Source: an uncultured Verrucomicrobiota bacterium
GTDB lineage: Bacteria > Verrucomicrobiota > Verrucomicrobiia > Limisphaerales > CAIMTB01
Direction: 5' to 3'
DNA length: 64,000 nt
Assembly (NCBI GenBank): GCA_964476125.1
Contig: CAYZAE010000002.1
Span: 52,395-116,394 of the forward strand
How positions within the stretch are numbered: position 1 is the stretch's first letter; each line of letters opens with the position of its first letter. A model generated the notes under the pieces. That model saw only the letters and a list, made by a program, of their open reading frames with translations, had not been told where the DNA came from and ran no database searches. Shown piece by piece: positions 1,060 to 62,506 of this stretch. The translations under genes and the position numbers were made by a program.

Positions 1060-2277
1060 ATGACTGGATCACGTCTTCCATGGGTTCTGCTCGGCTGGCT
1101 GTTGGCGGCCCTTTCCACCCGGGGCGCAACGCCGACCGCCGACGGATTGTACGCCGTGTTCCGCGTGAATCGGGGGGCCGCGGCGCTTGGCGAATTCGCC
1201 TGCCGACTCGAATTCGAGAAGGTTCCCCGGACCGTGGCCAATTTCGTCGGGCTGGCGGAGGGGTCGTGGCCGTTTGTGGATGACCTGTCCGGCCATGCCG
1301 CAAAACGCCCGTTTTACGACGGCATCGTGTTCCACCGGGTCGTGCCGGGCTTTGTGATCCAGGCCGGTTCACCGAACGGGCAGGGCACCGATGGGCCCGG
1401 GTACACTTTCCGGGATGAATTCAACAGCTCCCTCCGCCATTCCAAGGCCGGGATTCTGTCCATGGCCAACAGCGGACCCCACTCGAACGGGAGCCAGTTC
1501 TTCGTCACCCTGGCCCCCACCGCCTGGCTCAACGATCTGCACAGTGTGTTCGGGGAAGTCGTGGACGGCATGAACGTGGTGACGAACGTGGCCCAGGGGG
1601 ATGTCATCGCCGGGGTCACCATTCTCCGCAACGGTGCCGCCGCCCGGGCCTTCGTGCCGTCCGGCCAGGGTCTCCCCGAATCAGCCGGCGTCCCGGCGTC
1701 CATCGTCCTCCAATCCGACGCCGTACGGCTCAACTACTCCCAGACCGCCAACTCCGAGTTCTTCGTGTATCACTCCGACCGCGTCGACGCCAAGGCCTGG
1801 GCCCAGGTGGCGGGCCAGGAAATGCTGGGGACCGCGCCGGTGGCCTCAACGCGCGATGTCACGGCCGTTTCGGCGGGGAAACCGGCGAAGTTCTACGAGG
1901 TCGTGCGGGTTCAGTATCCCGACCCCATTCACACTCCGGCCTCCGTGGCCTCGAAGCTGGTGAGACTCACCGACACCGGCGGATTTGTGATCGCCTTCTC
2001 GCTGAGTTCCGCGACTTCGGGAACCTACACCTTCACGCAGGGCGCGTCGGTGCTGGGGCCGAATCCGGTTTCCAGCTACAGCTGGACGCAGGAGGCCTAT
2101 CGCGGCCGCTTGGTGACGGGGATCTCCGGGCTCGCGTATGGCAACGATCCCGTGGTTCAGGCGAGCGTCAATCTGCTGCCCCTGTCGCCGACCAACGGGA
2201 CCTACAGCGGCAGTCTCGGCACTGCCACCGGGCAGTCGGTGCCCATCAAGGGGACCTTCGGCATCAGTGGACTCTAG
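1060..2277 (+). CDS. secreted cyclophilin-type peptidyl-prolyl cis-trans isomerase with a roughly 230-aa C-terminal extension
   Basis: ORF 943..2277 trimmed to ATG 1060, where MTGSRLPWVLLGWLLAALSTRG looks like a signal peptide. Cyclophilin core motifs are present: VANFVGLAEG, FHRVVPGFVIQAG, SMANSGPHSNGSQFFVT. The C-terminal half has no motif I recognise. Confidence 0.85.
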   Translation: MTGSRLPWVLLGWLLAALSTRGATPTADGLYAVFRVNRGAAALGEFACRLEFEKVPRTVANFVGLAEGSWPFVDDLSGHAAKRPFYDGIVFHRVVPGFVIQAGSPNGQGTDGPGYTFRDEFNSSLRHSKAGILSMANSGPHSNGSQFFVTLAPTAWLNDLHSVFGEVVDGMNVVTNVAQGDVIAGVTILRNGAAARAFVPSGQGLPESAGVPASIVLQSDAVRLNYSQTANSEFFVYHSDRVDAKAWAQVAGQEMLGTAPVASTRDVTAVSAGKPAKFYEVVRVQYPDPIHTPASVASKLVRLTDTGGFVIAFSLSSATSGTYTFTQGASVLGPNPVSSYSWTQEAYRGRLVTGISGLAYGNDPVVQASVNLLPLSPTNGTYSGSLGTATGQSVPIKGTFGISGL

Positions 2278-9632: not shown

Positions 9633-10829
9633 TCAGACGGAACGGATGTAGCTGCGGTCCTCCCAGACGGCCTTGATCGAGGTGAGATTCCTGGGGTCGA
9701 GAACGTGTTTGGCAGCCTTTAGGACCCGTCCCTTGCGGAGCGCGTGCCAGGCGTCGCTGGCATTGATGGCCACCGCCTGGAGCACGCTCGGATCGCGGTA
9801 GCAATCGATCATGCAACGCGTGCAGCCATCGCGAATGAGCTTCGAACTGTCGAAGTCGTAGATGTTGCACATGGGGGACTCCCAGAAGTGGCAGCGGTAC
9901 AGGTTCAGGTTCCAGTCGAGGTAGAAGTATTTGTGCCCGCCGAGGCAGCCGAATTTCTCCTTCTCCCCCCGGAGATGGCGCTGCATTTCGTCGAGGGACT
10001 CGGTCGGGTTCACGACCGGGAACCCGCTCCGGCGTTTCATCCCCTTGATCTTCTCGAAGACCTCGATGAGTTCGTCGATGCGGAAGTTGACCAGGCTCGA
10101 TTCGCTGAAGCTGAGGTAACTCGATTGGAGGTTGGTGAGCGGATACGAGAAGGTGCAGGAGCTGAATCCCAGGGAGCGCAGGAAATCCGGGAGGCGGTCG
10201 TAATCCTCGATCAGCCGGCTGGCGGTGATGCTGGCGGTGGTCTGGATTCCCAGGCGGCCGAAGGTTTCGTTGGCGCGCTTGATCTTGCGGCAGACATCCG
10301 GCAGGCCACGGTTGTCCTCGTGCTTGGCGATGTCATGGGCGTCGATCGACATGATCACGCTGCTCAGGCCGTCCTCGGCGAGCCCGCGCATGTTGTCGTC
10401 GGTCCACAAACCCCCGTTGCTGCAGATCATCGGCCGGATGCCGTTCTCCGCCGCGTACCGGACCATGGCCCGGATGTCGCGGTGGACCATCGGTTCGCCG
10501 CCCACGAAAAGGAGGTAGCCGATGTGTTCCCGGCGACAGATGTCGATGACGTCGCGGGCTTCCTTGAGCGTGACGGACCGGCGGGACTTGGGATCGAACT
10601 TGGACCGCGCGAATCCGCAGAAACCGCAGTCGGCGTTGCAGATGTTCGTGATGGCGAACTGGAGGTAGCCGGGTCCGCCGTGGTCGAGGACCTCGCCGAC
10701 CAGTTTGAGAAATCCCTTCTTGGGCGGGCGCACGGGGGCTGATCCGCCGCCGGCGGGCGGGGTGCCGCGGGTGGAGGACTGTCCCATGGGCCTGTCGGAG
10801 GTCGGGGCGGCGTCAGCGGTAGGTTCCAT
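9633..10829 (-). CDS. radical SAM enzyme with a Cys-rich SPASM/twitch-like C-terminal region
   Basis: CxxxCxxC cluster motif in FAITNICNADCGFCGF, then GGEPM. The C-terminal cysteines are FGCLGG...YRCHF...CNIY...CTRCMIDCYRD. The N-terminal 30 aa are low complexity, so the start could be an internal Met. Confidence 0.85.
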   Translation of the reverse strand: MEPTADAAPTSDRPMGQSSTRGTPPAGGGSAPVRPPKKGFLKLVGEVLDHGGPGYLQFAITNICNADCGFCGFARSKFDPKSRRSVTLKEARDVIDICRREHIGYLLFVGGEPMVHRDIRAMVRYAAENGIRPMICSNGGLWTDDNMRGLAEDGLSSVIMSIDAHDIAKHEDNRGLPDVCRKIKRANETFGRLGIQTTASITASRLIEDYDRLPDFLRSLGFSSCTFSYPLTNLQSSYLSFSESSLVNFRIDELIEVFEKIKGMKRRSGFPVVNPTESLDEMQRHLRGEKEKFGCLGGHKYFYLDWNLNLYRCHFWESPMCNIYDFDSSKLIRDGCTRCMIDCYRDPSVLQAVAINASDAWHALRKGRVLKAAKHVLDPRNLTSIKAVWEDRSYIRSV

Positions 10830-10877
10830 GCTCGGAGGGGTGGGATAGTGGGGGCGATGAAGGGCGGCGGCAACCGC

Positions 10878-13811
10878 TCAGGCAAGTTTCAATCCAACCG
10901 GCAGGGAATCGCCCAGGACCCGGGCTTCGTCGGCCCGCTCGAGGTCGGCGACCTCGCGGACCAGTCGAATCCAGGAGGCCGGTGCCCGGCCGGCTTCCAG
11001 GGTCGCGAGGGTCAGGGTCCGGGCGTCGTCGTCGAGGTCCCGGGATCGGTCGCCGGTGAGGCGGGTGATCTGGACGAGGGCAAAGAGGGCGCCGTCGGCG
11101 CCCCGGGCGTGGGCGTGGCGGAGACGCTCGAGCCAGCGGGTGGCGATTTCGGGGTCGAGGGTCTGGTGCTGGTTTCCGGCGAGGGGCACGCGGGCGCCGA
11201 GGCGGCCGAGGGCCCAGGCCCAGGGACCGGAGAGGCCTGTGGGCAGTTCGAGTTGGGCCAGCACCCAGCCCCCCAGCACCGCCTTGTCGGCGGGTGCCAG
11301 GTGTTCGAGGGAGGCGGCGAGGCGGACCATTTCGTGAAGCCCCTCGGGCTGGGTGCCCTTGGGTTTTCCGGAGTGTTTCGGATGGCCGGGATCGATGCGG
11401 AAGGCGAGGTGGGGACGGAGGTGCTCCCAGATTTCGCGATGGCGTGCGGGTTCGAGGCCGCCGGCGATGCGACGCCAATGCACCCAGAACGCATCCCACA
11501 CCGTGGCGTCCTTGACCGACTGCACGCCCTCGGCGAAGAGCGGAGCGATCTGTTCGCAGCGCCAGGCGTCGAGGGGGTAGCCGAACCCCGGGCGGAGCGA
11601 GAATCCGGCCAGCTGGTAGTAGGCGCGTTCGTGATCGGGAGAGCGGCGCCTTCGGGCGGCGCCGGCGTGAAGGGCGCCCCAGAGTTCGCGAAGCACAGGC
11701 AGGCGCCATTCGTCGCGGGGGCCGAGGTGGGTTTCGAGCTGGGACGGGAGCTGGCGCGCGGCTTTGGCGAGGGCGTCGAGGGAGGCCTGGGCGGGCGGGG
11801 TGGGACCGGATCCCGGCGTGGATCGCGCGGACTTGGATCGGGGCGTGAAGACGTGTTCGACAGCCTGTCGGGCGTCGTCGAATCGCCGGGGCATGGCCTC
11901 CACCACGGGGGCGTTATTGCCCGGCACCGCGTTCAAGCCCGAAGCTGAGCCCGAGCCCGAGCCCGAGCCGCGCAGTTCGAATTCGAGGCGCCAGTGCCCG
12001 GCGGAATCCTGCGCGACGCAGGCCAGTTCGAGTGTGCCGATCTCGGTCAGGGTCGCCCGCAGGTGGACCGGGATTTCGCTTTCGCGCGCCGACGGATCCG
12101 CCTGTTTCTCACTCCGGAGCAGGGCGTGCAGGGGCGGCAGCGGGGTCAGTTCCTCGTCGACCGCCACGAGGTCGCCGGGCGACTCGACGCGGTCGGAAGT
12201 GCTGGTGAACAGGGGGAATTGGACCGGGCGCCCCAGGGTGAGCCGGAACACGCGCTGGTTGAGCTCCGCGGTGCGCCCCTCCTCCCAGCCGCGGGGAATC
12301 ACACAAAGCGCGGACCCCGGCCCGGCGGAGTCGGATCCCAGGCCGACGTAGATCGCGTGCGACGAACCGCCGGCGATGCGACGGGCCAGTCCGCGCCGGG
12401 CAAGGCCGTGGCAGGCCGCGCCGCGGGCGACGGCGAGATCCAGGGATCCGTGGGGGAGCGTGGGAATGGGCGGTTGATCGGGCCACCACGAGGAAAGAAT
12501 CCCGAGCAGTCGACGGGCGAGCGGATCGGCTTTGAAGACGCCTCCGTTCAGCAGGACGGCGTCGGGCCGGGGGAGGCTGCCTGGGACCGGCGGAGGGTGG
12601 ACGGCGTTGGACGACGGCGTGGGGTCCAGGGCCGCCAGGGCCGCCAGGGCCAGATGTCCGGCGCCCCGATGCGCGTGAAGAAAAGCCGCAAGCTGTCGTG
12701 GGATCGCCGGATCCTTGGCATAGGGCAGTCCGAGTTCCTGCAAAGCCGTTCGCGGGGCGCGGACGAGTGCCGGTTCGGGGCCGCAGGCGGGGAAGAATCC
12801 TTCGAGCACCAGCCGTTCGACGTCCGCGCGCGTCAGCGTCGCCTTCAACGTCCCGCCCATCAGCGCGCTGCCCTGGCCGGCGATGGACAGTCGAACCTCG
12901 GCCGGGGCGTCCTCCCCGAGCAGCCTTTCCTTGGCGTCGCGGCTGGCCTGGAGAAGTTGGGTCCAGGAGGACGCGCCCAGCCGTCGTCCCCCCGCCGACA
13001 TCCGTTCCTCGGCGCACCGGGCGAGGGCGGCGTCCATGTTGTCGCCGCCCAGCATGAGGTGTTCTCCGACGGCGATGCGACGAAGGACAGGACCCTCGAC
13101 CTGGACCAGGGTGAAGTCGGTGGTGCCGCCGCCCACATCGACGACCAGGACCAGGCGGATCCCAGCGAGGGCCGCTTCGAGGGAGCCGTTCCGGGTGGCG
13201 GTGTGGACGAAATCCTCGAAGGCCGCCTGCGGTTCCTCGACCAGGGTGCAGCGGCGCAGGCCGGCGCGGTGGGCGGCCTCGACGGTAAGATTCCGGGCGA
13301 CGACGTCGAAGGAGGCGGGAACGGTGAGAACCAGGTCCTGTTCGGCGAGGGGATGGCCGGGGTGGGCCTGATCCCAGGCGCGGGCCAGGTGGAGGAGATA
13401 GCGTGCGGAGGCGTCGACGGGTGAGACGCGGGGAACGTCGGGAGCGGCACCCCAGGGAAGGATGGGAGCGGAACGATCGACGCCCGGGTGGCAGAGCCAG
13501 CTTTTGGCGGAGGTGACCAGCCGTCCGGGAACCCGGGCCCCGTGGCTCCGGGCGAAATGGCCGATCACCTGCGACATGCCGGGGGTGGTGTCCCAGGGCA
13601 GGCGAAGGGTCTCGGCGGGGAATTCGTCGGGGTGCGGGAGGTAGAGTGCCGAGGGCAGCGTGGACCGCGGGGAGATTTCGCCCAGGGCCTGGAGTTGCGG
13701 CACGGGGAAATCGGTGACCGGCGCCCCTGGCCCGGCCTCGGTATCGACGAACGCGAGGGCGCAGTTGGAGGTGCCGAGATCGATGCCGACGAGGAAACGC
13801 GGGGCAGTCAC
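10878..13811 (-). CDS. atypical Hsp70-family ATPase with a long (about 450-aa) helical C-terminal extension
   Basis: Actin-fold/Hsp70 NBD motifs: FLVGIDLGTSNCALAF (phosphate 1) and VVDVGGGTTDFTLV (phosphate 2). The 977-aa length and the C-terminus are unlike the DnaK lid. Confidence 0.85.
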   Translation of the reverse strand: MTAPRFLVGIDLGTSNCALAFVDTEAGPGAPVTDFPVPQLQALGEISPRSTLPSALYLPHPDEFPAETLRLPWDTTPGMSQVIGHFARSHGARVPGRLVTSAKSWLCHPGVDRSAPILPWGAAPDVPRVSPVDASARYLLHLARAWDQAHPGHPLAEQDLVLTVPASFDVVARNLTVEAAHRAGLRRCTLVEEPQAAFEDFVHTATRNGSLEAALAGIRLVLVVDVGGGTTDFTLVQVEGPVLRRIAVGEHLMLGGDNMDAALARCAEERMSAGGRRLGASSWTQLLQASRDAKERLLGEDAPAEVRLSIAGQGSALMGGTLKATLTRADVERLVLEGFFPACGPEPALVRAPRTALQELGLPYAKDPAIPRQLAAFLHAHRGAGHLALAALAALDPTPSSNAVHPPPVPGSLPRPDAVLLNGGVFKADPLARRLLGILSSWWPDQPPIPTLPHGSLDLAVARGAACHGLARRGLARRIAGGSSHAIYVGLGSDSAGPGSALCVIPRGWEEGRTAELNQRVFRLTLGRPVQFPLFTSTSDRVESPGDLVAVDEELTPLPPLHALLRSEKQADPSARESEIPVHLRATLTEIGTLELACVAQDSAGHWRLEFELRGSGSGSGSASGLNAVPGNNAPVVEAMPRRFDDARQAVEHVFTPRSKSARSTPGSGPTPPAQASLDALAKAARQLPSQLETHLGPRDEWRLPVLRELWGALHAGAARRRRSPDHERAYYQLAGFSLRPGFGYPLDAWRCEQIAPLFAEGVQSVKDATVWDAFWVHWRRIAGGLEPARHREIWEHLRPHLAFRIDPGHPKHSGKPKGTQPEGLHEMVRLAASLEHLAPADKAVLGGWVLAQLELPTGLSGPWAWALGRLGARVPLAGNQHQTLDPEIATRWLERLRHAHARGADGALFALVQITRLTGDRSRDLDDDARTLTLATLEAGRAPASWIRLVREVADLERADEARVLGDSLPVGLKLA

Positions 13812-15724: not shown

Positions 15725-16333
15725 TCAGGGCAGTTCGACCTCGGCGGATGCGATCACGCGGGGGTCCAGGGCGGGGTTGACCTCGGGAAACTTCACCGTG
15801 CGTGCCACCCAGCCGTGGTGCCGGACGGCGCCGCGGTAGGGAGGTTGGCCGGTCACATTTCCCGTGAGGCGGATGCGTTGGGCATCAAAGCCGGCGGGCA
15901 CGGAGACCGTTGCTCCTTCCGGGTCTGGCAGGGCCGGTGCGAGATCGACGCATTGCCGAAGCACCCGCTGGCAGCCGGCGTGAACCACCCGCGCCGCTGC
16001 GGCCACATCCTCGTCGGCAAACCCGGTGACGTCCTGTTGCAGGAAATCGATCAGGCGCCCTTCGCGTTGCAGCGCCGCGAGCAGGACCAGACCGGAGGCG
16101 TGGACGCGTTCGGGCGGCAGCGGGGCCGGGGCAGGAGCAGGGGGAGGCACCGGTTTCGATGCCACCGGCGCCGGTGATGGCGCGGGGGCTTGAAAGGGAG
16201 CGGGAGCGGGAGCCGGGGCGGAAGGCTTTTGCGGGGCGAGCAGCGAGCGTGCGTAGGGGGCGTCGAAAAGCACCCGCCACGCCAGCTTGAGCCGGGCGCC
16301 AAACGTCAGGTCCGCGTGGGACGATCCATCCAT
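15725..16333 (-). CDS. DUF2760-like protein (Pro/Ala-rich linker plus conserved C-terminal domain)
   Basis: The 202-aa protein has N-terminal FGARLKLAWRVLFD, a PAPAPAP linker, then LLAALQREGRLIDFLQQDVTGFADEDVAAAARVVHAGC. As I recall, that pattern is characteristic of DUF2760 proteins, which are typically found next to Hsp70 paralogues. Needs HMM confirmation. Confidence 0.65.
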   Translation of the reverse strand: MDGSSHADLTFGARLKLAWRVLFDAPYARSLLAPQKPSAPAPAPAPFQAPAPSPAPVASKPVPPPAPAPAPLPPERVHASGLVLLAALQREGRLIDFLQQDVTGFADEDVAAAARVVHAGCQRVLRQCVDLAPALPDPEGATVSVPAGFDAQRIRLTGNVTGQPPYRGAVRHHGWVARTVKFPEVNPALDPRVIASAEVELP

Positions 16334-16384
16334 GGGCCAAAGCCTAGGCGCGGAGAAGTCCGGAGGCCAGTCCCGGGCGAAAGA

Positions 16385-16533
16385 GTGCGTCGTGGGTCGT
16401 GCGTCGTGCGGCGATAAGAGTGGGGAGAGGGGAGTGGGGAGAGGGGAGGATTAAGATTAGGATTAAGATTCAGATTAAGAACGAGGATCCAACGCTCCCC
16501 ACTCCGACCCACGACCCACGACCCACGACCCAC
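16385..16533. repeat. composite intergenic element: inverted heptamer arrays, opposed G4 motifs and a central AT-rich hexamer array
   Basis: Left arm is (GTGSGTC)x4 at 16385-16412. A + strand G4 motif GGGGAGAGGGGAGTGGGGAGAGGGG lies at 16422-16446. Then (GATTNN)x5 at 16449-16478. CTCCCCACTCC at 16495-16505 is the exact complement of GGAGTGGGGAG at 16431-16441. The right arm is (GACCCAC)x4 at 16506-16533, the reverse complement of the left heptamer, and gives GGGTCGTGGGTCGTGGGTCGTGGG on the minus strand. Confidence 0.9.
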
Positions 16534-16540
16534 TCCCCCG

Positions 16541-16930
16541 TCAGCCTCCCGTGAACACGGGGCGGAAGCCGGCTTCGGTCAGAATGCGGGCGACGTCCTC
16601 GCGTTTGTCGCCCTGGATTTCGATGCGGCCTTCCTTGACGGTGCCGCCGACGCCGCAGGCTTTCTGCATTTGTTTGGCGAGCCGTTCCTTTTCGGGGAGG
16701 CCGATGCCGACGAAATTTTTCACGACCGTCACGGTTTTGCCGCCGCGACCGCCGGTCTGGCGCTGGACGTCCACGCGGCCGCGGTTTTTGGCGGGTTTGG
16801 CGGGGCGTTGAGGCAGTTCCGAGTCGGCAGGGCCGGGCGGGAGCCCGGAGGCGCTCAGGGCGGCGAAGGGGTTGTGCCCGAACTCCGGGGGGGGATCGTT
16901 GGGGGACGCTGGGTTTCCGGCCGTGGCCAT
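16541..16930 (-). CDS. yciH: translation initiation factor SUI1/YciH family
   Basis: ORF 16541..17200 trimmed to ATG 16930. The C-terminus GRGGKTVTVVKNFVGIGLPEKERLAKQMQKACGVGGTVKEGRIEIQGDKREDVARIL is the SUI1 fold signature. Confidence 0.85.
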   Translation of the reverse strand: MATAGNPASPNDPPPEFGHNPFAALSASGLPPGPADSELPQRPAKPAKNRGRVDVQRQTGGRGGKTVTVVKNFVGIGLPEKERLAKQMQKACGVGGTVKEGRIEIQGDKREDVARILTEAGFRPVFTGG

Positions 16931-44902: not shown

Positions 44903-45337
44903 ATGAAGGTGACTGATTTACCGGCCCTGAACGCGTGTTTGAACGCGATGTCGCTGGTCTTGCTGGTGATGGGTTTCGTGTTCATCCGAACCGGTCGACG
45001 GGAGGCGCATCGGCGCTGCATGATGGGGGCGTTCGCCACGTCCTGTGTTTTTTTGGTCTGCTACGTCCTGCACAAGGTGTTGGTGAGGGGGGTGCACACG
45101 AAGCTGGGGGCGGAAGGTCTCCTTAAAACCGTCTACTACGGGATGTTGATTTCCCACATCCTGTTGGCGGCTTCGATTGTCCCGCTGGCGCTGGTGACCA
45201 TTTCGAGGGCGCGGCGGGGCATGTTCGAGGCGCACCGGAGCCTGGCGCGGTGGACATGGCCGATCTGGACGTATGTTTCGGTGACGGGGATCCTGATTTA
45301 TTTCATGCTTTACCGCTGGTTTCCGGCGGGTGCCTGA
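44903..45337 (+). CDS. DUF420 membrane protein (CtaM-like)
   Basis: ORF 44801..45337 trimmed to ATG 44903. 144 aa with four TM helices and the pattern [13 protein letters not shown]...HRRCM...SHILLA typical of DUF420, found next to cox genes. Confidence 0.75.
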
Positions 45338-45399
45338 AGCCTCGGGAGGAATTCGCTGGAACCGGCGCCGCCGGTGCGCAACAACAGGTTTTTGAAGCC

Positions 45400-46941
45400 A
45401 TGCCAGAGCAGATCGTCATTCTCGATTTCGGCTCCCAGTACACGCAGGTGATCGCGCGTCGGATTCGCGAGTGCAATGTCTACTCGACGATCCTTCGCTA
45501 TGACACGCCGGCGAAGGAGATCGCGGCGCTCCATCCGAAGGGCATCATCCTTTCGGGGGGGCCCTCGAGCGTTTACGCGGCGGATGCGCCGATGCCGGAC
45601 CGGGGTGTTTTCAAGCTGGGGGTTCCGGTGCTCGGCGTCTGCTATGGTGTCCAGCTGCTGGCGCATTTCCTGGGTGGCAAGGTGGAGAAGGGCCAGAAGC
45701 GGGAGTACGGCAAGGGGACGCTGTCGGTGCTGGATCCGGCCTGCCCGCTTTTCGAGGGGCTGCCGACCACGCTGCAGGTCTGGAACTCGCATGGCGACAA
45801 GCTCACCCGTCAGCCGAAGAATTTCGCGGTGGTGGCGAAGACGGAGAATTCGGACTACGCGGTGATCGAGGATCGGTCCCGGAACTTCATCGGACTGCAA
45901 TTCCATCCGGAAGTGGCGCATACGCCGCAGGGACGGCAGATCATTGCGAACTTCGTTCATCGCGTCTGTGGCTGCGGCAAGGAATGGACGTTGCGGGGGT
46001 GCCGGGGGCGGGGGGTGGGGGAGAGCGGGGCGCGGGTGGGGGGGGGGGGGGGGGTTGTGGGGTGGCGCGGGGGGTTCGACTCCAGCGTGGCCGCGGCGCT
46101 TTTGCATCGCGCGATCGGGGAGCGGCTGACCTGTATTTTTGTGAACAACGGTCTCCTGCGGTCCCGGGAAGCGGAGGTGGTGCAGGAGGTGTTCGGTCGG
46201 AACTTCAAGATGCAGTTGCAGTACGAGGACGCGAGCGTGCTGTTTCTGAAGCGGCTGAAGGGGGTGACGGACCCTGAGCGGAAGCGGAAGATCATCGGCC
46301 GTACGTTCATCGAGGTGTTTGAGGCCGCCACCAAGCGTGCGGGCAAGGCCAGGTTCCTGGCGCAGGGGACGCTGTACCCGGATGTCATTGAATCGGTGCC
46401 CATCGCGGGCAATCCGGCGGCGCTCATCAAGAGCCACCACAATGTGGGGGGCCTGCCGAAGCGGATGAAGTTCAAGCTGGTGGAGCCGCTGCGCTGCCTT
46501 TTCAAGGACGAGGTGCGGGTGCTCGGGCTGGAGTTGGGTTTGCCGGCGGAGATCGTCTATCGCCAGCCGTTCCCGGGGCCCGGACTCGCGGTGCGCGTGC
46601 TCGGGGATCTGACTCCGCGCAAGCTGGAGATCGTGCGGGCGGCGGATGCGATCGTGGTGGAGGAGATGAAGAGCAACGGCCTCTATCACAAGATCTGGCA
46701 GAGCTTCGCGGTGCTGCTCCCGGTCAAGAGTGTGGGCGTGATGGGGGATGAGCGGACCTACGACGAGACCATCTGCGTGCGCGCGGTGGAATCGCAGGAT
46801 GGGATGACGGCGGACTGGGTCCGGCTCCCCTACGACCTTCTGGAAAAGCTCTCAAACCGGATCGTGAACGAGGTCAAGGGCGTGAACCGCTGCGTGTTCG
46901 ACATCACCAGCAAGCCGCCCGGAACGATTGAATGGGAATGA
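45400..46941 (+). CDS. guaA: GMP synthase (glutamine-hydrolysing); contains an anomalous G-saturated patch over the PP-loop
   Basis: ORF 45250..46941 trimmed to ATG 45400. [27 protein letters not shown] and FHPEV form the GATase part. [28 protein letters not shown] and KPPGTIEWE end the synthetase part. The expected SGGVDSS reads RGGFDSS after a poly-G-rich stretch. Confidence 0.9.
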
Positions 46942-56864: not shown

Positions 56865-57938
56865 ATGAGTTTGCCCACCGGTTGCAGGCTGCTGGCGATC
56901 GATGATACCGCCGAGAATCTGCAGGTCGTGTCGGCCATCCTGCGGGGTGCCGGGTATGCCGTCAGCGTGGCCCGCTCGGGGGAGCAGGGACTCGACATCG
57001 CGCGCCGTGCCGCGCCCGATCTGATCCTGCTCGATCTCGTGATGCCGGGTTGGGACGGATTCGAAACCGGCGCGCGTATGAAGGCCGAGGTGTCCCTGCG
57101 GGAGATCCCGGTGGTCTTTCTCACCGCCAGCCAGGAGTCGGCCGACGTGGTCAAGGGGTTCGAGTCGGGGGCGGTGGACTACGTCACCAAGCCCTTTAAC
57201 GCCGCGGAACTGCTTTCGCGGGTGCGGACGCATCTCGAACTGCGGGCGGCGCGGGAACGGCTGGGGTCGCTGGCCCGGCAGTTGTCCCGCTACCTCTCCC
57301 CGCAGATCCATGAGGCGATCTTTTCGGGGGAACGCCGGGCCCGCCGGGAAACCCGTCGCCGGCCACTGACCGTGTTCTTCTCGGACATCGTGGGCTTTAC
57401 GGCGCGCACGGAGGCCCTGGGGGATGCGGAACTGGCGTCCTGGCTGAATGATTATCTCGAGGAAATGGCCCAGGTCGCCCAGCGCCATGGTGGCACGCTC
57501 GACAAATTCATCGGGGACGCGGTGATGGTGTTTTTCGGGGATCCGGGAACCGCCGGGGTGGAGGAGGATGCGCGTCGGTGCGTGCGCATGGCCTGGGAGA
57601 TGCTCGAGGCCGCCCGACGGCGCGACACCGAGATTCGCGTGGGACTCTGTTCCGGTGAATGCATTGCCGGGAACTTCGGGAGCGAAGTGCAGATGAACTA
57701 CACCATCATTGGCTCAGTGGTGAACGCCGCGGCCCGGCTGCAGTCGGCGTCCGCCCCCGGCCGCATTCTGATTGCTGAATCGACCCGGCGTCTGCTGGGA
57801 CCCGGGTTCACCTGCGAACCCCAGGGATCGATCCAACTCCGCGGCATTGCCCAGCCCCTGTTGAGCTGGTGGGTGACCGCGATCGACCAGGTCGAATCGG
57901 AAGCCCTGCCACAACCCACGGAGACCCCTGCATGCTGA
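56865..57938 (+). CDS. response regulator receiver + class III adenylate/guanylate cyclase
   Basis: REC domain: LLAIDD...[14 protein letters not shown]...VVFLTA...DYVTKPF. Cyclase domain: [16 protein letters not shown] and [12 protein letters not shown]. Confidence 0.9.
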
Positions 57939-60900
57939 AGGTCGAATTCTCGCTTGCCCGACGGATCACCCTGCTGCTGGCCGCGCTGGATCTGTTGTTG
58001 CTGGTGGTGGCCGCCGCGTCGTTCCTGCGGTTGCGCGGGGCGGAAGGGCGCTACGCCCGGCTGTTCGAGGCCGACAGCCGGGCGCTGCTTTCCATCCCCC
58101 GGATGAACGTCGCGCTGCACGACGCCGCCCGGATCTCCGCCCAGCGCGCGAACTCCACCATGCCGGACGAGGCCGCGCGGCTGGACCGCGAACTCGCCGC
58201 CGTGCGCACCCGCATGGCCCAGGAGACGGCCGGACTCCGCACCGCCATGCCCGAATACAGCCGGGTCTCGACGGACTTTGACCGGGCGTTCAACGACATG
58301 CTGTCGGCCGCCCAACACATGCGCGACGTCGTCTCCTCGAGGCACTCCGAGGCCGCCCGCATGCAGGCCCGACAACAGTTCCTCGCGCGCTTCGAAAAGC
58401 TGCGCGCCTTTCTCCAGGCTCTCGGCGACCAGATCCGCGACCGCATGATCGAGGAGGCCCGACAGGCGGAGATCGTGGCCGACCGCATCATCCGGCACAC
58501 CCTGCTCATGGCCGTCATCGCACTCGCCGGCGGCCTGGTTCTGGCCCAGGTCTGGGTCTGGCGCTGGGTCGCCCTCCCGTTGCGCGCCCTCGTCACCACC
58601 GTCCGCCGGCTCGTCGCCGGCGACCTGAACACCGACATCCCGGGCGGCGGGCGCTCCGATGAAATCGGGCTGCTGGCCTCCGCGCTCGGCGTGTTTCGAC
58701 AAAGCCTGGAACGGAAGCGGGAACTGGAGGAGGCGGGCCGCGACCAGGTGGCGCGTCTCGAACAAAGCGAATCGGAACTGCGCAAAAGCCAGCACCTGCT
58801 CCAAAGCGTCACCGACAACGCCGAGGCCTTCATCTTCGTCAAGGACCTCCAAGGCCGTTACCTGTTCGTCAACCGGCTGTATCTCAGCCTGCTCAAACGG
58901 TCGGCCGCAGACATCCTCGGTCGGACGGTGCATGACATCTTCCCTCCCGAGGCCGCCGCCGGCTTCGCCCAGGGCGAGAGCGAGGTGCTCACCACGGGCG
59001 TTCCCCAGGTCGGGCAGGCGACCATGTTCTCCCACGACGGCGTGCCCCGCTACTTTCTCGCCCACAAGTTCCCGCTCTTCGACGAACAGGGACGCATGTT
59101 CGCCATCGGCGGCGTCTCGACCGACGTCACCCAGATCAAGAAAACCGAGGAGGAACTGGCCCGCGCCCGCGACGCGGCCGAATCGGCGAACCGCGCCAAG
59201 AGCGCCTTCGTGGCCACCATGAGCCACGAAATCCGCACGCCGATGAACTCCATCATCAACCTCACCGGGCTCGCCCTCGACGGCGAACTCGAACCGCGCC
59301 AGCGCCAGTTCGTCGATGTCGCCCACTCCTCCGCCCGCGGCCTGCTCGCCCTGCTCAACGACATCCTGGACTTCTCCAAGATCGAAGCCGGCCGGCTCGA
59401 ACTGGAATCCGCCCCCTTCGGTCTCCGGCATCTGCTGGAGGAGGTCGGCGATTCGTTCCGCGGCCGGGTCATGGAGAACCGCCTCGAATTTGCCATCCTC
59501 GTCGATGACGACGTTCCCGACCGGCTCGTGGGCGACACGCTCCGGCTGCGCCAGGTGCTCACCAACCTGCTGGGCAATGCCTTCAAATTCACGGAACGCG
59601 GCGAGATCGCCGTCCGGGTCTCCCTCGACCACGAGGCCGCAGTCGAACCCCTCGGCGAACCGGACGCGGAATCCCCCGCCGACTTCGCTCGCGCGGATGG
59701 ATCCCTCCATTTTTCGACCGGCGTGGCGCCCATCCAGGTGCGATTCTCCGTCACCGACACCGGCATCGGCATCGCCCCCGAGAAACAACGGTTCCTCTTC
59801 GAAGCCTTCAGCCAGGCCGACACCTCGACCTCCCGCAAATACGGGGGCACGGGACTCGGTCTCGCGATCTCCAAACGGCTCGTGACCCTCATGGGCGGCG
59901 GCATCCAGGTACGTTCCGAACCGGGCAAGGGCAGCGAATTCACGTTCACCGCCCGCTTCGACGCCTGCCACGGCCAGGAATGCGCCGGACTCGAACGCCA
60001 GGGACTGCCCCGCGACCTGGAACATACCCGGGCCCTCGTGGCCGCCGGCAATGAACTGACCCGCGAACTGCTCGTCCGCACGCTCCGCCGCTTCGGCCTG
60101 CGCACCGAAGGCGTCGACTCCGGCGACGTCGGACTGCGCCGTTTCCGCGAGGCTCTCGAATCCGGAGACGGCTTCGGCCTGGTGGTCGTCGACTGGATGC
60201 TGCCCGCCGAGGGCGGCATGGAATGGGTCCGCCGGGTGAACGGAATCTCCGGCGCCGACCCTGTCCCACTGGTAATGGTCAGCTCCTTCACCGGTGAAGG
60301 GGAGGAAAGGATCGCCCGGGACGCCGGCGTCCGGGCCTTCGTCCCCAAACCCATCAGCGGCTCGATGCTGCTCGACGCCGTGATCGAGGCCACCCAGCTC
60401 CGACCGGAACTCCGCGTCGCCGCCGCCACCAAACCGGAGACCGCCACCACCCTGGCCGGCCGGCGCCTGCTCGTGGCCGAGGACAACGACGCCAACCAGT
60501 TCGTCATCCGCGAGGTTCTCGAACGCGCCGGCGCCTCGGTCACCATCGCCCCCGACGGCAGTGAAGCGCTGCTGGCGCTCCGGAAGGAGAAGTTCGATCT
60601 CGTGCTCATGGACATGCAAATGCCCGGGCTGGACGGCCTCGAAGCCACCCGCCGCATCCGAGCCGGCGAGATTCCCGGAGAGCCACGCCTCCCCATCGTC
60701 GCCCTCACCGCCAATGCCATGAAGTCGGACATGGAAGCCTGCTTCGCCGCGGGCATGGATGACTACGTGCCCAAGCCGATCGAGCGCACGGCGCTGTTCG
60801 CCACGCTGGCTCGATGGCTCCCGCCCCTCCCCCCCGTCTCTCTCCCCGGCCCGGAATCCTCCCTCTCCATCACCCCGCCGGTTCCTGCCACCGAATCCAC

Positions 60901-62506
60901 AGCCGAACCCAAGGTTGGGGTAGAACCGGAGGCGGCGCTCCAGCCCGAGGCCGAATCGAAGTCCGATGCCGGGGACAGGCCCGAAACCAAGGCTGGATCC
61001 GGGACCGAACCGGAGCGCGAGTCTGACCCCGAACCCGAATCCTCGTCCGAGACGGTCACCCCGGCCTTGGCAGTCGCCCCGATTCCCTATTTCGCTCCCT
61101 CCGAATCGGACGACGACACCGCTGGGCCGGTCCTCCATTCGGCGCTCCCAGCCGAGCCTCCGAAGTCCGTGGGAACCGAAATCACAACCCCGCCGGTCGC
61201 GGCCTCGACGCATCACGAGCCGGTGATCGCCAACGAATCCGTCGCAACCGCCGGGAACGGCGTTTCACCGGTGTCCGCCGCGGAGGCGATGTCGGAGCCC
61301 GAACCGGAACCCCAACCGGAGCCGGAGCCGGAGCCCGAGTTGGAGCCCGAACCCGAACTGGGGTTGGTCCTGGAGCAGGAACCTGATGCGCAAACCGAAC
61401 CGGAATCCGGATTTGAGCCGGAACGGGAGCGGGAGCCGGAGCCTGAGTTGGAGCCCGAACCCGAGCTGGGGTTGGTCCTGGGACAGGAACCTGACGCGCG
61501 AACCGAACCGGAACCCGCGACGGTTCCCTCCGAACCCCACCAGGAAACCATCGCCGCCTCGGCGCCAGTTTCGGGGGTGCCGCCGGCTTCGGTCGCCGCA
61601 GAGGACCCACCCGTCCCGGTTCCGGCTGACGCGGAATCCGCGCCTGTTCCCGGCGAGGTTCCAACCTCCCCGGAAGCCGTTGCCCCCGAACCCACCACTC
61701 CTGCCTCCGAGACTGCGGTTCCGGAGCCATCGGTGGCTGCCCGTAAACCGGAATCCCGCCGGATCGGCGGACGTCCCAAGGTCGCGAGACGGCGTCGGTC
61801 GCCCTCCGAGAACCAGATGGATCTGACGGGCGTTCCCCTCGAGCGCGTCACACCTGACGAGGAGATGCGTCGGTTGGTGGCCGGAGGGCGATTGCCCGGG
61901 GTGGACGTCGAGGACGCCATGCAGCGTCTTGGACTCGAGCGGGAGTCGATCCTGCGCATGCTGCGCCAGTTCGCCACGGGACAGAGCCGGATCGTGCGGG
62001 AATTGCGCGCGGCCATCGAGGCCGGGGACCGCGAGGAGGGCCGGCGATTGGCGCATTCCCTCGCCGGTGCCGCCGGGAATCTTTCCGCCCACGCCCTGCG
62101 TCGCCACGCCAAGACCATCGAACTGGCCATCAAATTCAACCAGGAGAACCTCGAAGGCATGCTGATCGAGGTCGAGGAGGAGGCCTCCCGGGTGTTCGCC
62201 GGAATCCGGCTGCTCGATGAGGTTCCCTCGGAACCAGCCCCCGAACAGGTCGTGGTGACCACCGGGGACGGCTCCTCACGCAAGCTTCGCGACGCTTTGC
62301 AGAGCCTCGCGGGAAATCTGGAACTCGGCGACCTCGACGCCATCCAGCAGGGCATGGAAGCCCTCCAGAAACTCGGGTTGCCCCGCGAACTTGCCCCCGA
62401 CGGGCGCCGACTCGGGGAATTGGTCGCCGGCTTTGATCACGTCCAGGCGTCCGAACTCGCCCGCCGCATGGCCGCGGACCTGCGCTGGAACGATCGGCTC
62501 CGCTGA
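57932..62506 (+). CDS. hybrid sensor histidine kinase (TM-HAMP-PAS-HisKA-HATPase-REC-REC-long disordered linker-HPt)
   Basis: ORF 57869..62506 trimmed to ATG 57932 ([26 protein letters not shown]), overlapping the upstream stop by 7 nt. H-box [12 protein letters not shown] boxes [15 protein letters not shown] and [10 protein letters not shown]. Second [14 protein letters not shown]...[14 protein letters not shown]...KPI. HPt [11 protein letters not shown]. Confidence 0.9.
61331..61513 (+). repeat. in-frame 108-bp (36-aa) tandem duplication inside the Pro/Glu-rich linker of the kinase
   Basis: Copy 1 starts at 61331 (gagcccgagttggagcccgaacccgaactggggttggtcctggagcaggaacctgatgcgcaaaccgaaccggaa). 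Copy 2 starts at 61439 (gagcctgagttggagcccgaacccgagctggggttggtcctgggacaggaacctgacgcgcgaaccgaaccggaa). There are only a few substitutions. Protein: [25 protein letters not shown] / [25 protein letters not shown]. Confidence 0.9.

Follow-up and report, generated by a model that had tools for sequence, protein, structure and literature searches.

A composite SSR tract between yciH and a DUF2760/Hsp70-like cassette as a possible transcript-end hairpin in an uncultured freshwater verrucomicrobium

Is a gene spacer made of short tandem repeats in a large imperfect palindrome a regulatory switch, the end of a transcript, or a patch of simple sequence with no function? The question arises in the genome of an uncultured free-living freshwater verrucomicrobium with a GC content of 66%, in which such an element lies between yciH and a gene cassette that begins with DUF2760 and continues with two Hsp70-like genes, whose products have 619 aa and 977 aa, the longer one carrying DUF3731. 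The surrounding genes in the 64-kb stretch analyzed here, which we call the window, are of the PSCyt2/PSD1/DUF1501 type. The first-pass annotation of the window suggested that the repeats might fold in the mRNA either into a long hairpin or into a G-quadruplex (G4), thereby serving as a conformational or thermosensing switch for a chaperone-like operon. Every feature that it listed could be located again in the sequence, including the spacer of 207 nt (16334–16540) between the yciH stop codon and the DUF2760 start codon and the orientation of the two flanking genes, both on the minus strand (Table 1).

Table 1. Positions of the genes, repeat arrays, and predicted structures at the locus (window coordinates, except for the motif in relatives).
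Feature	Position	Strand	Description
yciH/SUI1 gene	16541–16930	minus	129 aa; the element forms its 3′ UTR
yciH stop codon	16541–16543	minus	
DUF2760 gene	15725–16333	minus	first in the DUF2760/Hsp70-like/DUF3731-Hsp70-like cassette; ATG at 16333
DUF3731 Hsp70-like gene	10878–13811	minus	
Putative DUF2760 promoter	16341–16370	minus	CTGGCCT (−35-like), 17 nt, TAGGCT (−10-like), 7 nt, ATG
Promoter motif in relatives	L011 3360–3396; L091 541–577; L092 2964–3000; L232 and L233 about 1164–1200		
GTGCGTC array	16385–16410		3.7 units (Tandem Repeats Finder); fourth unit degenerate, GTGCGGC
GAGTGGGGAGAGGG array	16418–16448		2.2 units (Tandem Repeats Finder)
GATTAA array	16449–16480		5.3 units (Tandem Repeats Finder)
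CGACCCA array	16505–16533		4.1 units (Tandem Repeats Finder); 100% matches
Outer arms	16383–16413 / 16505–16535		31 nt, 87% complementary (repeat finder)
Inner arms	16431–16441 / 16495–16505		11 nt, 100% complementary (repeat finder)
Hairpin 5′ arm, mRNA sense	16505–16540	minus	CGGGGGA, then four GTGGGTC units; begins 1 nt past the yciH stop
Inner-stem 5′ strand, mRNA sense	16495–16505	minus	GGAGTGGGGAG; perfect pairing with 16431–16441
AT-rich centre	16449–16494	minus	GCGTTGGATCCTCG, then five TTAATC-like units; unpaired in the fold
C-rich array, mRNA sense	16418–16448	minus	CCCTCTCCCCACTC, 2.2 units; the plus strand is the G4N3 motif
Hairpin 3′ arm, mRNA sense	16379–16413	minus	four GACGCAC/GACCCAC units, then CTCTTTC; no U-tract after it

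The element consists of four adjacent micro-arrays of 6–7-nt units (GTGCGTC, GAGTGGGGAGAGGG, GATTAA, and CGACCCA), with periods of 7, 7/14, 6, and 7 nt and 84–100% matches in Tandem Repeats Finder, which is the head-to-tail arrangement of 1–9-nt units that characterizes SSR/VNTR loci. It is also the top-ranked inverted repeat of the window. The arm complementarity proposed by the first-pass annotation is exact for the inner arms, whereas the outer heptamer arms pair only imperfectly: three of the four left-arm units read GTGCGTC, and an exact complement would need GTGGGTC. The AT-rich centre, which includes TTGGATCCTCGYTCTTAATCTGAATC, is indeed the most AT-rich stretch of the window, with 23% GC over 30 nt compared with 33% in the next lowest stretch; 16-mers resembling (GATTAA)n had four matches in the window against 0.03 expected. 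Since the element is present in 12 independent assemblies (JGI, ENA, and Logan), it is no assembly artefact. Several other structures were considered and discarded. Two small ORFs across the element (16399–16554 on the plus strand and 16306–16533 on the minus strand) have their frames shifted by 7-nt indels among strains, which leaves the arrays outside any conserved ORF; only one GTTRRRY-like core of an integron attC site is present; and the arms lie 91 nt apart for a DNA cruciform.

Could the element be one copy of a dispersed mobile repeat? The enterobacterial REP/BIME sequences are imperfect palindromes past stop codons, which stabilise the upstream mRNA and can attenuate transcription. 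REPs, which have a link to RAYT transposases, are 35–40 nt long and number in the hundreds. An intergenic imperfect palindrome of ~150 nt directly past a stop codon occupies a typical REP site, and its inverted arms might also suggest a MITE. However, the element is far longer than a REP and built of tandem units, and it is present as a single copy in the 64-kb window: a search of the window for further copies of the unit arrays found none, nor does it contain a second copy of the centre. The arms are tandem heptamers and not unique terminal repeats, and the flanks on the two sides (GGGCGAAA and CCCCGTCA) share no direct repeat, so that the combination of terminal inverted repeats with a target-site duplication expected of a REP or MITE insertion is missing. 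Viral contigs gave no match to the centre, and among at least 80 metagenome loci with the heptamer array none of those listed matches the window by BLASTN. We consider a REP/BIME-like or MITE origin hardly credible.

The RNA transcribed from the minus strand is predicted to fold at −99.3 kcal/mol, compared with −73.9 ± 4.0 kcal/mol for shuffled sequences (z = −6.4), and the plus-strand RNA at −93.6 kcal/mol (z = −4.8). The minus-strand hairpin spans 16379–16540 with an imperfect predicted stem of ~50 bp and a loop of ~80 nt, and it is kept in all strain alleles with energies between −85.6 and −99.4 kcal/mol at 37 °C. The long hairpin anticipated for the mRNA is thus a stable predicted fold. 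The G-quadruplex alternative to it did not materialize, as a G4 was never part of the minimum-energy structure of any allele at 10, 25, or 37 °C in the G-quadruplex model of ViennaRNA. Heating in silico hardly opens the stem, which retains 52 pairs at 10–37 °C and 46–51 pairs at 50–90 °C, with −18.8 kcal/mol left at 90 °C. The hairpin ends ~46 nt upstream of the DUF2760 AUG, which is unpaired with the element.

These folds bear directly on the proposal that a hairpin/G-quadruplex switch in RNA or DNA senses temperature or cations and controls a chaperone-like operon. The two canonical G4 motifs on which the proposal was built do exist, one on the plus strand (16422–16446) and one on the minus strand (within 16497–16539), each with four G-tracts of at least three bases and loops of 1–7 nt, and their G4Hunter scores are 2.68 and −1.92. 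The G-rich 5′ arm is also transcribed ~100 nt ahead of its partner, and a transient co-transcriptional G4 in the yciH 3′ UTR is conceivable. However, the hairpin outcompetes the G4 at each tested temperature, and the window as a whole contains 29 canonical G4 motifs, close to the 26.6 ± 4.5 found after shuffling with matched composition, so the motif at the element is background; in practical terms, G4 motifs in a genome of 66% GC are background. A regulatory G4 would be enriched and conserved among relatives and alleles, whereas two strains (L005 and L008) have lost the plus-strand motif, and the sister species (L225) lacks the mRNA-sense one.

Thermosensing has no better footing. The element resembles ROSE and fourU thermometers and the CIRCE/HrcA system just in its inverted repeat and in its position upstream of Hsp70-family genes; its predicted stability is one order of magnitude too high for an RNA thermometer, it shows no melting in silico in the physiological range, and it sequesters neither the Shine-Dalgarno (SD) region nor the start codon. 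A search of Rfam at a permissive E-value returned plant miRNA-precursor models alone, at 15–31 bits against gathering thresholds of 85–168, and no thermometer, and the CIRCE operator TTAGCACTC-N9-GAGTGCTAA had no match in the window at up to three mismatches. Even the chaperone-like nature of the operon is in doubt. Both Hsp70-like proteins score 65–81 bits against the DnaK and HscA models, for which the cut-offs are 620–820 bits, so that a heat-shock role is an assumption; judged by these scores, the cassette is an uncharacterised one and no recognised heat-shock operon. The G4 that never enters the fold, the hairpin that persists to 90 °C, the free AUG, the loss of the motifs, and the blank Rfam and CIRCE searches together leave the switch unsupported. 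With a putative DUF2760 promoter downstream of the element and no such element in relatives past the sister species, as described below, we regard the switch as very improbable.

The G4 survey yielded two observations apart from the element. The motifs in the window are strongly strand-biased, with 24 on the plus strand and 5 on the minus strand, which follows from the positive GC skew across most of the window. With a value of 3.4, a G-rich insert (45995–46074) between the GATase and GMP_synt_C domains of a GMP synthase gene (ORF 45250–46941, plus strand) scores highest in G4Hunter across the window, and it includes a G homopolymer of ~17 nt. A frame-critical homopolymer within this essential gene may reflect an error in the assembly or may be hypermutable.

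Phylogenetic footprinting upstream of DUF2760 brought out the motif CTGG(C/T)(C/T)(A/T)-N17/18-TAGGNT-N6/7-ATG, which is common to six independent verrucomicrobial relatives (the window, L011, L091, L092, L232, and L233) with otherwise unalignable upstream regions. The conserved −35/−10 geometry at 6–7 nt before the ATG suggests that a conserved promoter drives a leaderless mRNA of the DUF2760/Hsp70-like cassette, which would start downstream of the element; the base of the hairpin stem ends ~9 nt ahead of the −35-like box. A sigma-70 consensus scan of the spacer found nothing, no promoter-like site was found in the AT-rich centre, and other AT-rich spots in the window gave no usable promoter consensus. 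The myxobacterial homologues carry a different box, TTATCC, at a similar placement. The putative conserved promoter and the apparently leaderless mRNA matter for anyone working on the DUF2760/Hsp70-like genes.

As the 3′ UTR of yciH, the element has an extreme base composition. The mRNA-sense stretch 16410–16487, formed by the C-rich array together with the AT-rich centre, has 35 C but just 3 G among its 78 nt, and its C/G ratio of 11.7 is the maximum of either strand in the 64 kb, in which the 99.9th percentile is 5.8. A C-rich, G-poor stretch is the compositional hallmark of a Rho-loading (rut) site. Being untranslated, past a stop codon, and within the ~70–80 nt typical of Rho-dependent terminators, the hairpin loop looks like such a site from its composition. 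The rut-like loop, together with a hairpin that starts 1 nt past the stop codon and lacks a U-tract, favours a role in termination, 3′ protection, or insulation. Our preferred reading, which we would give about an even chance of being correct, is that the element is a lineage-restricted composite SSR tract, functioning as a hairpin that ends the yciH transcript and insulates it from the next promoter. The element fills the gap from the yciH stop codon to the putative promoter of the next operon, and the hairpin and the rut-like loop would end and 3′-protect the yciH transcript, with termination being either Rho-assisted or brought about by a hairpin terminator without a U-tract. The adjacent promoter of the leaderless DUF2760/Hsp70-like operon would be insulated thereby, and the arrays would have arisen, and would still vary, by slipped-strand mispairing.

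The transcript-end reading is in line with the Rho-dependent or U-tract-less terminators of GC-rich bacteria, with which the element shares a C-rich, G-poor stretch of ~78 nt past the stop codon and a strong GC hairpin. Compared with canonical terminators, the stem of ~50 bp and the loop of ~80 nt are far larger, and the rut-like stretch sits in the loop. A consensus scan for intrinsic terminators in 16334–16540 found no site, the loop is far over the 3–8 nt of Rho-independent terminators, and the stem is followed by no more than UUU, which is partly taken up in the stem; these points speak against a terminator. A pure terminator model also leaves the better-conserved AT-rich centre unexplained, albeit the conservation signal is weak. 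If a terminator or insulator were confirmed, it would imply that a GC-rich bacterium builds a transcript end from slippage-prone sequence at a fresh gene junction, and it would provide a natural case of two complementary SSR arrays giving a length-variable RNA hairpin.

The identity of DUF2760 homologues falls from 100% straight to 68%, leaving no intermediate relatives for an analysis of covariation, and a search of genome contigs with the Hsp70-like protein listed 80 loci, none of which has yciH upstream or the repeats, with the best species being 82% identical. This nearest species-level genome (L011) as well as L091, L092, L232, and L233 have another upstream gene and no such repeats; in L011 the upstream gene has a short GC hairpin at its end, likewise with no U-tract. 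From the side of yciH, L227 (76% identity in YciH) keeps the order aldolase, 2-dehydro-3-deoxygalactonokinase (Pfam DGOK), and yciH, followed by a different gene that overlaps the yciH stop codon, which places the element at a synteny breakpoint. Among the relatives examined, the element is known from the window's species and the sister species L225 only.

The sister species (87.8% nucleotide identity) has the 5′ arm and the centre up to a contig end inside the element. Its 5′ arm (GTAGGTC GTGGGCC GAAGGTC GAAGGTC) is 78% identical to that of the window and has its G-tracts broken; this divergence of 22% is close to the 21% found at the third positions of yciH codons (27 of 130). The centre is 92–95% identical, with about 4 differences in 50 nt where about 10 would be expected at the synonymous rate. 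Since 18.5% of 60-nt windows in the L225 alignment also reach at least 95% identity, the AT-rich centre appears only weakly better conserved than neutral sequence.

The predicted slippage is also visible among strains. The exact DUF2760 protein occurs on 22 metagenome contigs and the exact YciH protein on 16. We compared the spacer in 11 distinct metagenome contigs, 99.1–99.7% identical to the window, and in the window itself (12 assemblies in total). Three length alleles, set apart by a single 7-nt unit, occur among these ~99.5%-identical strains, the dominant one in nine of the 12. In these nine contigs the spacer measures 200 nt and contains GTGGGTC three times. L005 and L008 likewise have three GTGGGTC units, and their C-rich array shows point changes and is longer by one 7-nt unit, which leaves the window as the only assembly with four GTGGGTC units. 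Three SNPs affect the hexamer array of L008, and a single SNP falls in the 3′ arm of L004; neither the L004 SNP nor the unit indels are compensated. Variants are denser in the element than in the flanks in three of the 11 contigs, including L005 and L008, and two further contigs end within the element. Whole-unit differences between close strains are typical of SSR/VNTR loci, and 7-nt steps among near-identical strains demonstrate that unit slippage is real, as the first-pass annotation had supposed. The copy-number polymorphism is probably nearly neutral. Elsewhere in the cassette, at window position 13094 in the DUF3731 Hsp70-like gene, strains L001 and L005 have a 15-nt in-frame insertion relative to the window.

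The main rival to a transcript-end hairpin is a functionless patch of simple sequence, left by slippage at a rearrangement or insertion junction, whose palindrome arose through inverted duplication of a heptamer array. The neutral-like rate of the 5′ arm and the uncompensated L004 SNP mean that the hairpin could be incidental, and a functionless origin agrees also with the confinement to two sister species at a synteny breakpoint, the uncompensated unit indels, the excess of variants over the flanks in L005 and L008, and the frequency of (GTGSGTC)3 arrays in unrelated metagenome contigs. It does not readily account for the tidy layout, in which the hairpin extends from 1 nt past the stop codon to just before a conserved promoter, or for a loop whose excess of C over G is the extreme of the window. 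Moreover, the element has been retained with a well-conserved centre over ~12% nucleotide divergence, and its hairpin is predicted to be at least as strong as −85 kcal/mol in all alleles. We take a functionless patch to be a real possibility, if clearly not an even one.

A scan of metagenome DNA with (GTGSGTC)3 gave at least 80 loci, with unrelated contigs among the matches listed. Many of the listed matches are coding, in signal peptides reading VRRASCV, or are plain arrays in low-GC contigs, which are probably eukaryotic. On an unrelated soil contig with 74% GC (L109, 2240–2320), (GTGGGTC)5 comes directly after a TGA stop codon and is joined through a short loop to (GACCCAC)3, which is an independent hairpin made from the same GTGGGTC heptamer, and on several other high-GC contigs (L116, L125, and L146) the array begins at or just past a stop codon. 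What sets the present element apart is a pair of mutually complementary arrays with an AT-rich hexamer array between them. A different kind of repeat is present within the window itself, in an ORF for a hybrid histidine kinase/response regulator (57869–62506, plus strand, 1545 aa), in which hexamer repeats and a 108-nt repeat at 61293–61517 encode an acidic Pro/Glu-rich linker with a weak Trypan_PARP match.

Heptamer repeats are also familiar from the cyanobacterial STRR sequences. In most bacterial genomes covered by surveys, seven nucleotides is reported to be the commonest length of an SSR unit, and intergenic sets of several heptamer arrays that are missing from close relatives have been described (MacGregor 2015, PMC4679880). 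The element resembles such assemblages in having different 7-nt arrays side by side in one spacer with variable copy number, in contigs that break at the arrays, and in close relatives that share the neighbouring genes, or a shorter spacer, without the repeats. It differs from them in that its two arrays are mutually reverse complementary and thus give one long hairpin, in its occurrence at one locus in 64 kb compared with hundreds of sets, and in its GC-rich units (GTGGGTC and GTGCGTC compared with TAACTGA or CCCCAGT).

Could the unit number itself be regulatory? In the 5′ UTR of Haemophilus influenzae hmw1A, an (ATCTTTC)n SSR pairs with a G-rich region to give a long hairpin, which is cleaved by RNase III and needed for phase variation (PMC12721329). 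Here, too, a heptamer SSR whose unit number varies in populations would serve as an arm of a long RNA hairpin with a G-rich opposite arm, and by analogy the long near-perfect duplex is an obvious candidate for an RNase III substrate. The hmw1A repeat belongs to the 5′ UTR of the gene that it controls and has at least 10 units, whereas the element lies in the yciH 3′ UTR with 3–4 units per array, and the putative promoter downstream of the element argues against a location of the hmw type. It might still be envisaged that the hairpin is a tunable terminator or insulator, in which the number of heptamers sets the read-through from yciH, a stress-response gene, into the atypical Hsp70 cassette, because stem length, presentation of the rut-like loop, or RNase III processing would change with unit number. 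We see a slim chance of this. Were it true, a free-living freshwater verrucomicrobium would have a switch of the contingency type, and two SSR arrays complementary to each other would operate as a variable RNA structure.

More generally, the element might be a contingency or phase-variable tract, in which the unit number, or a protein bound to the (TTAATC)n centre, tunes the DUF2760 promoter or the read-through from yciH. Copy-number polymorphism in natural populations, the position at about −45 to −200 from the putative start site, and a centre better conserved than the arms would all fit, and there are precedents for expression-tuning SSRs upstream of promoters or in UTRs (PMC12721329; PMC4679880). 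However, the arrays lie outside the spacer between the putative −35 and −10 boxes as well as outside conserved ORFs, only three alleles were seen and one of them dominates, the centre contains no promoter-like site, and its conservation is statistically weak. The host is free-living in freshwater, and no host-driven selection of the kind typical of contingency loci is known for the organism. We therefore regard a phase-variable tract as unlikely, and we retain the hairpin at the end of the yciH transcript as our working interpretation.

As for the cassette downstream, a full-text literature search for "DUF2760" returned no paper, the PADLOC defence models had no meaningful match in the cassette, and repeats sought as boundary marks at its far end (10780–10920) were not found. 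The cassette is adjoined downstream by a radical SAM gene (9633–10829, minus strand) with weak matches to prokaryotic viperins, namely, 1e-15 for PADLOC pVip and 50 bits for the NCBIfam viperin model with a cut-off of 180; these matches probably reflect generic radical-SAM similarity.
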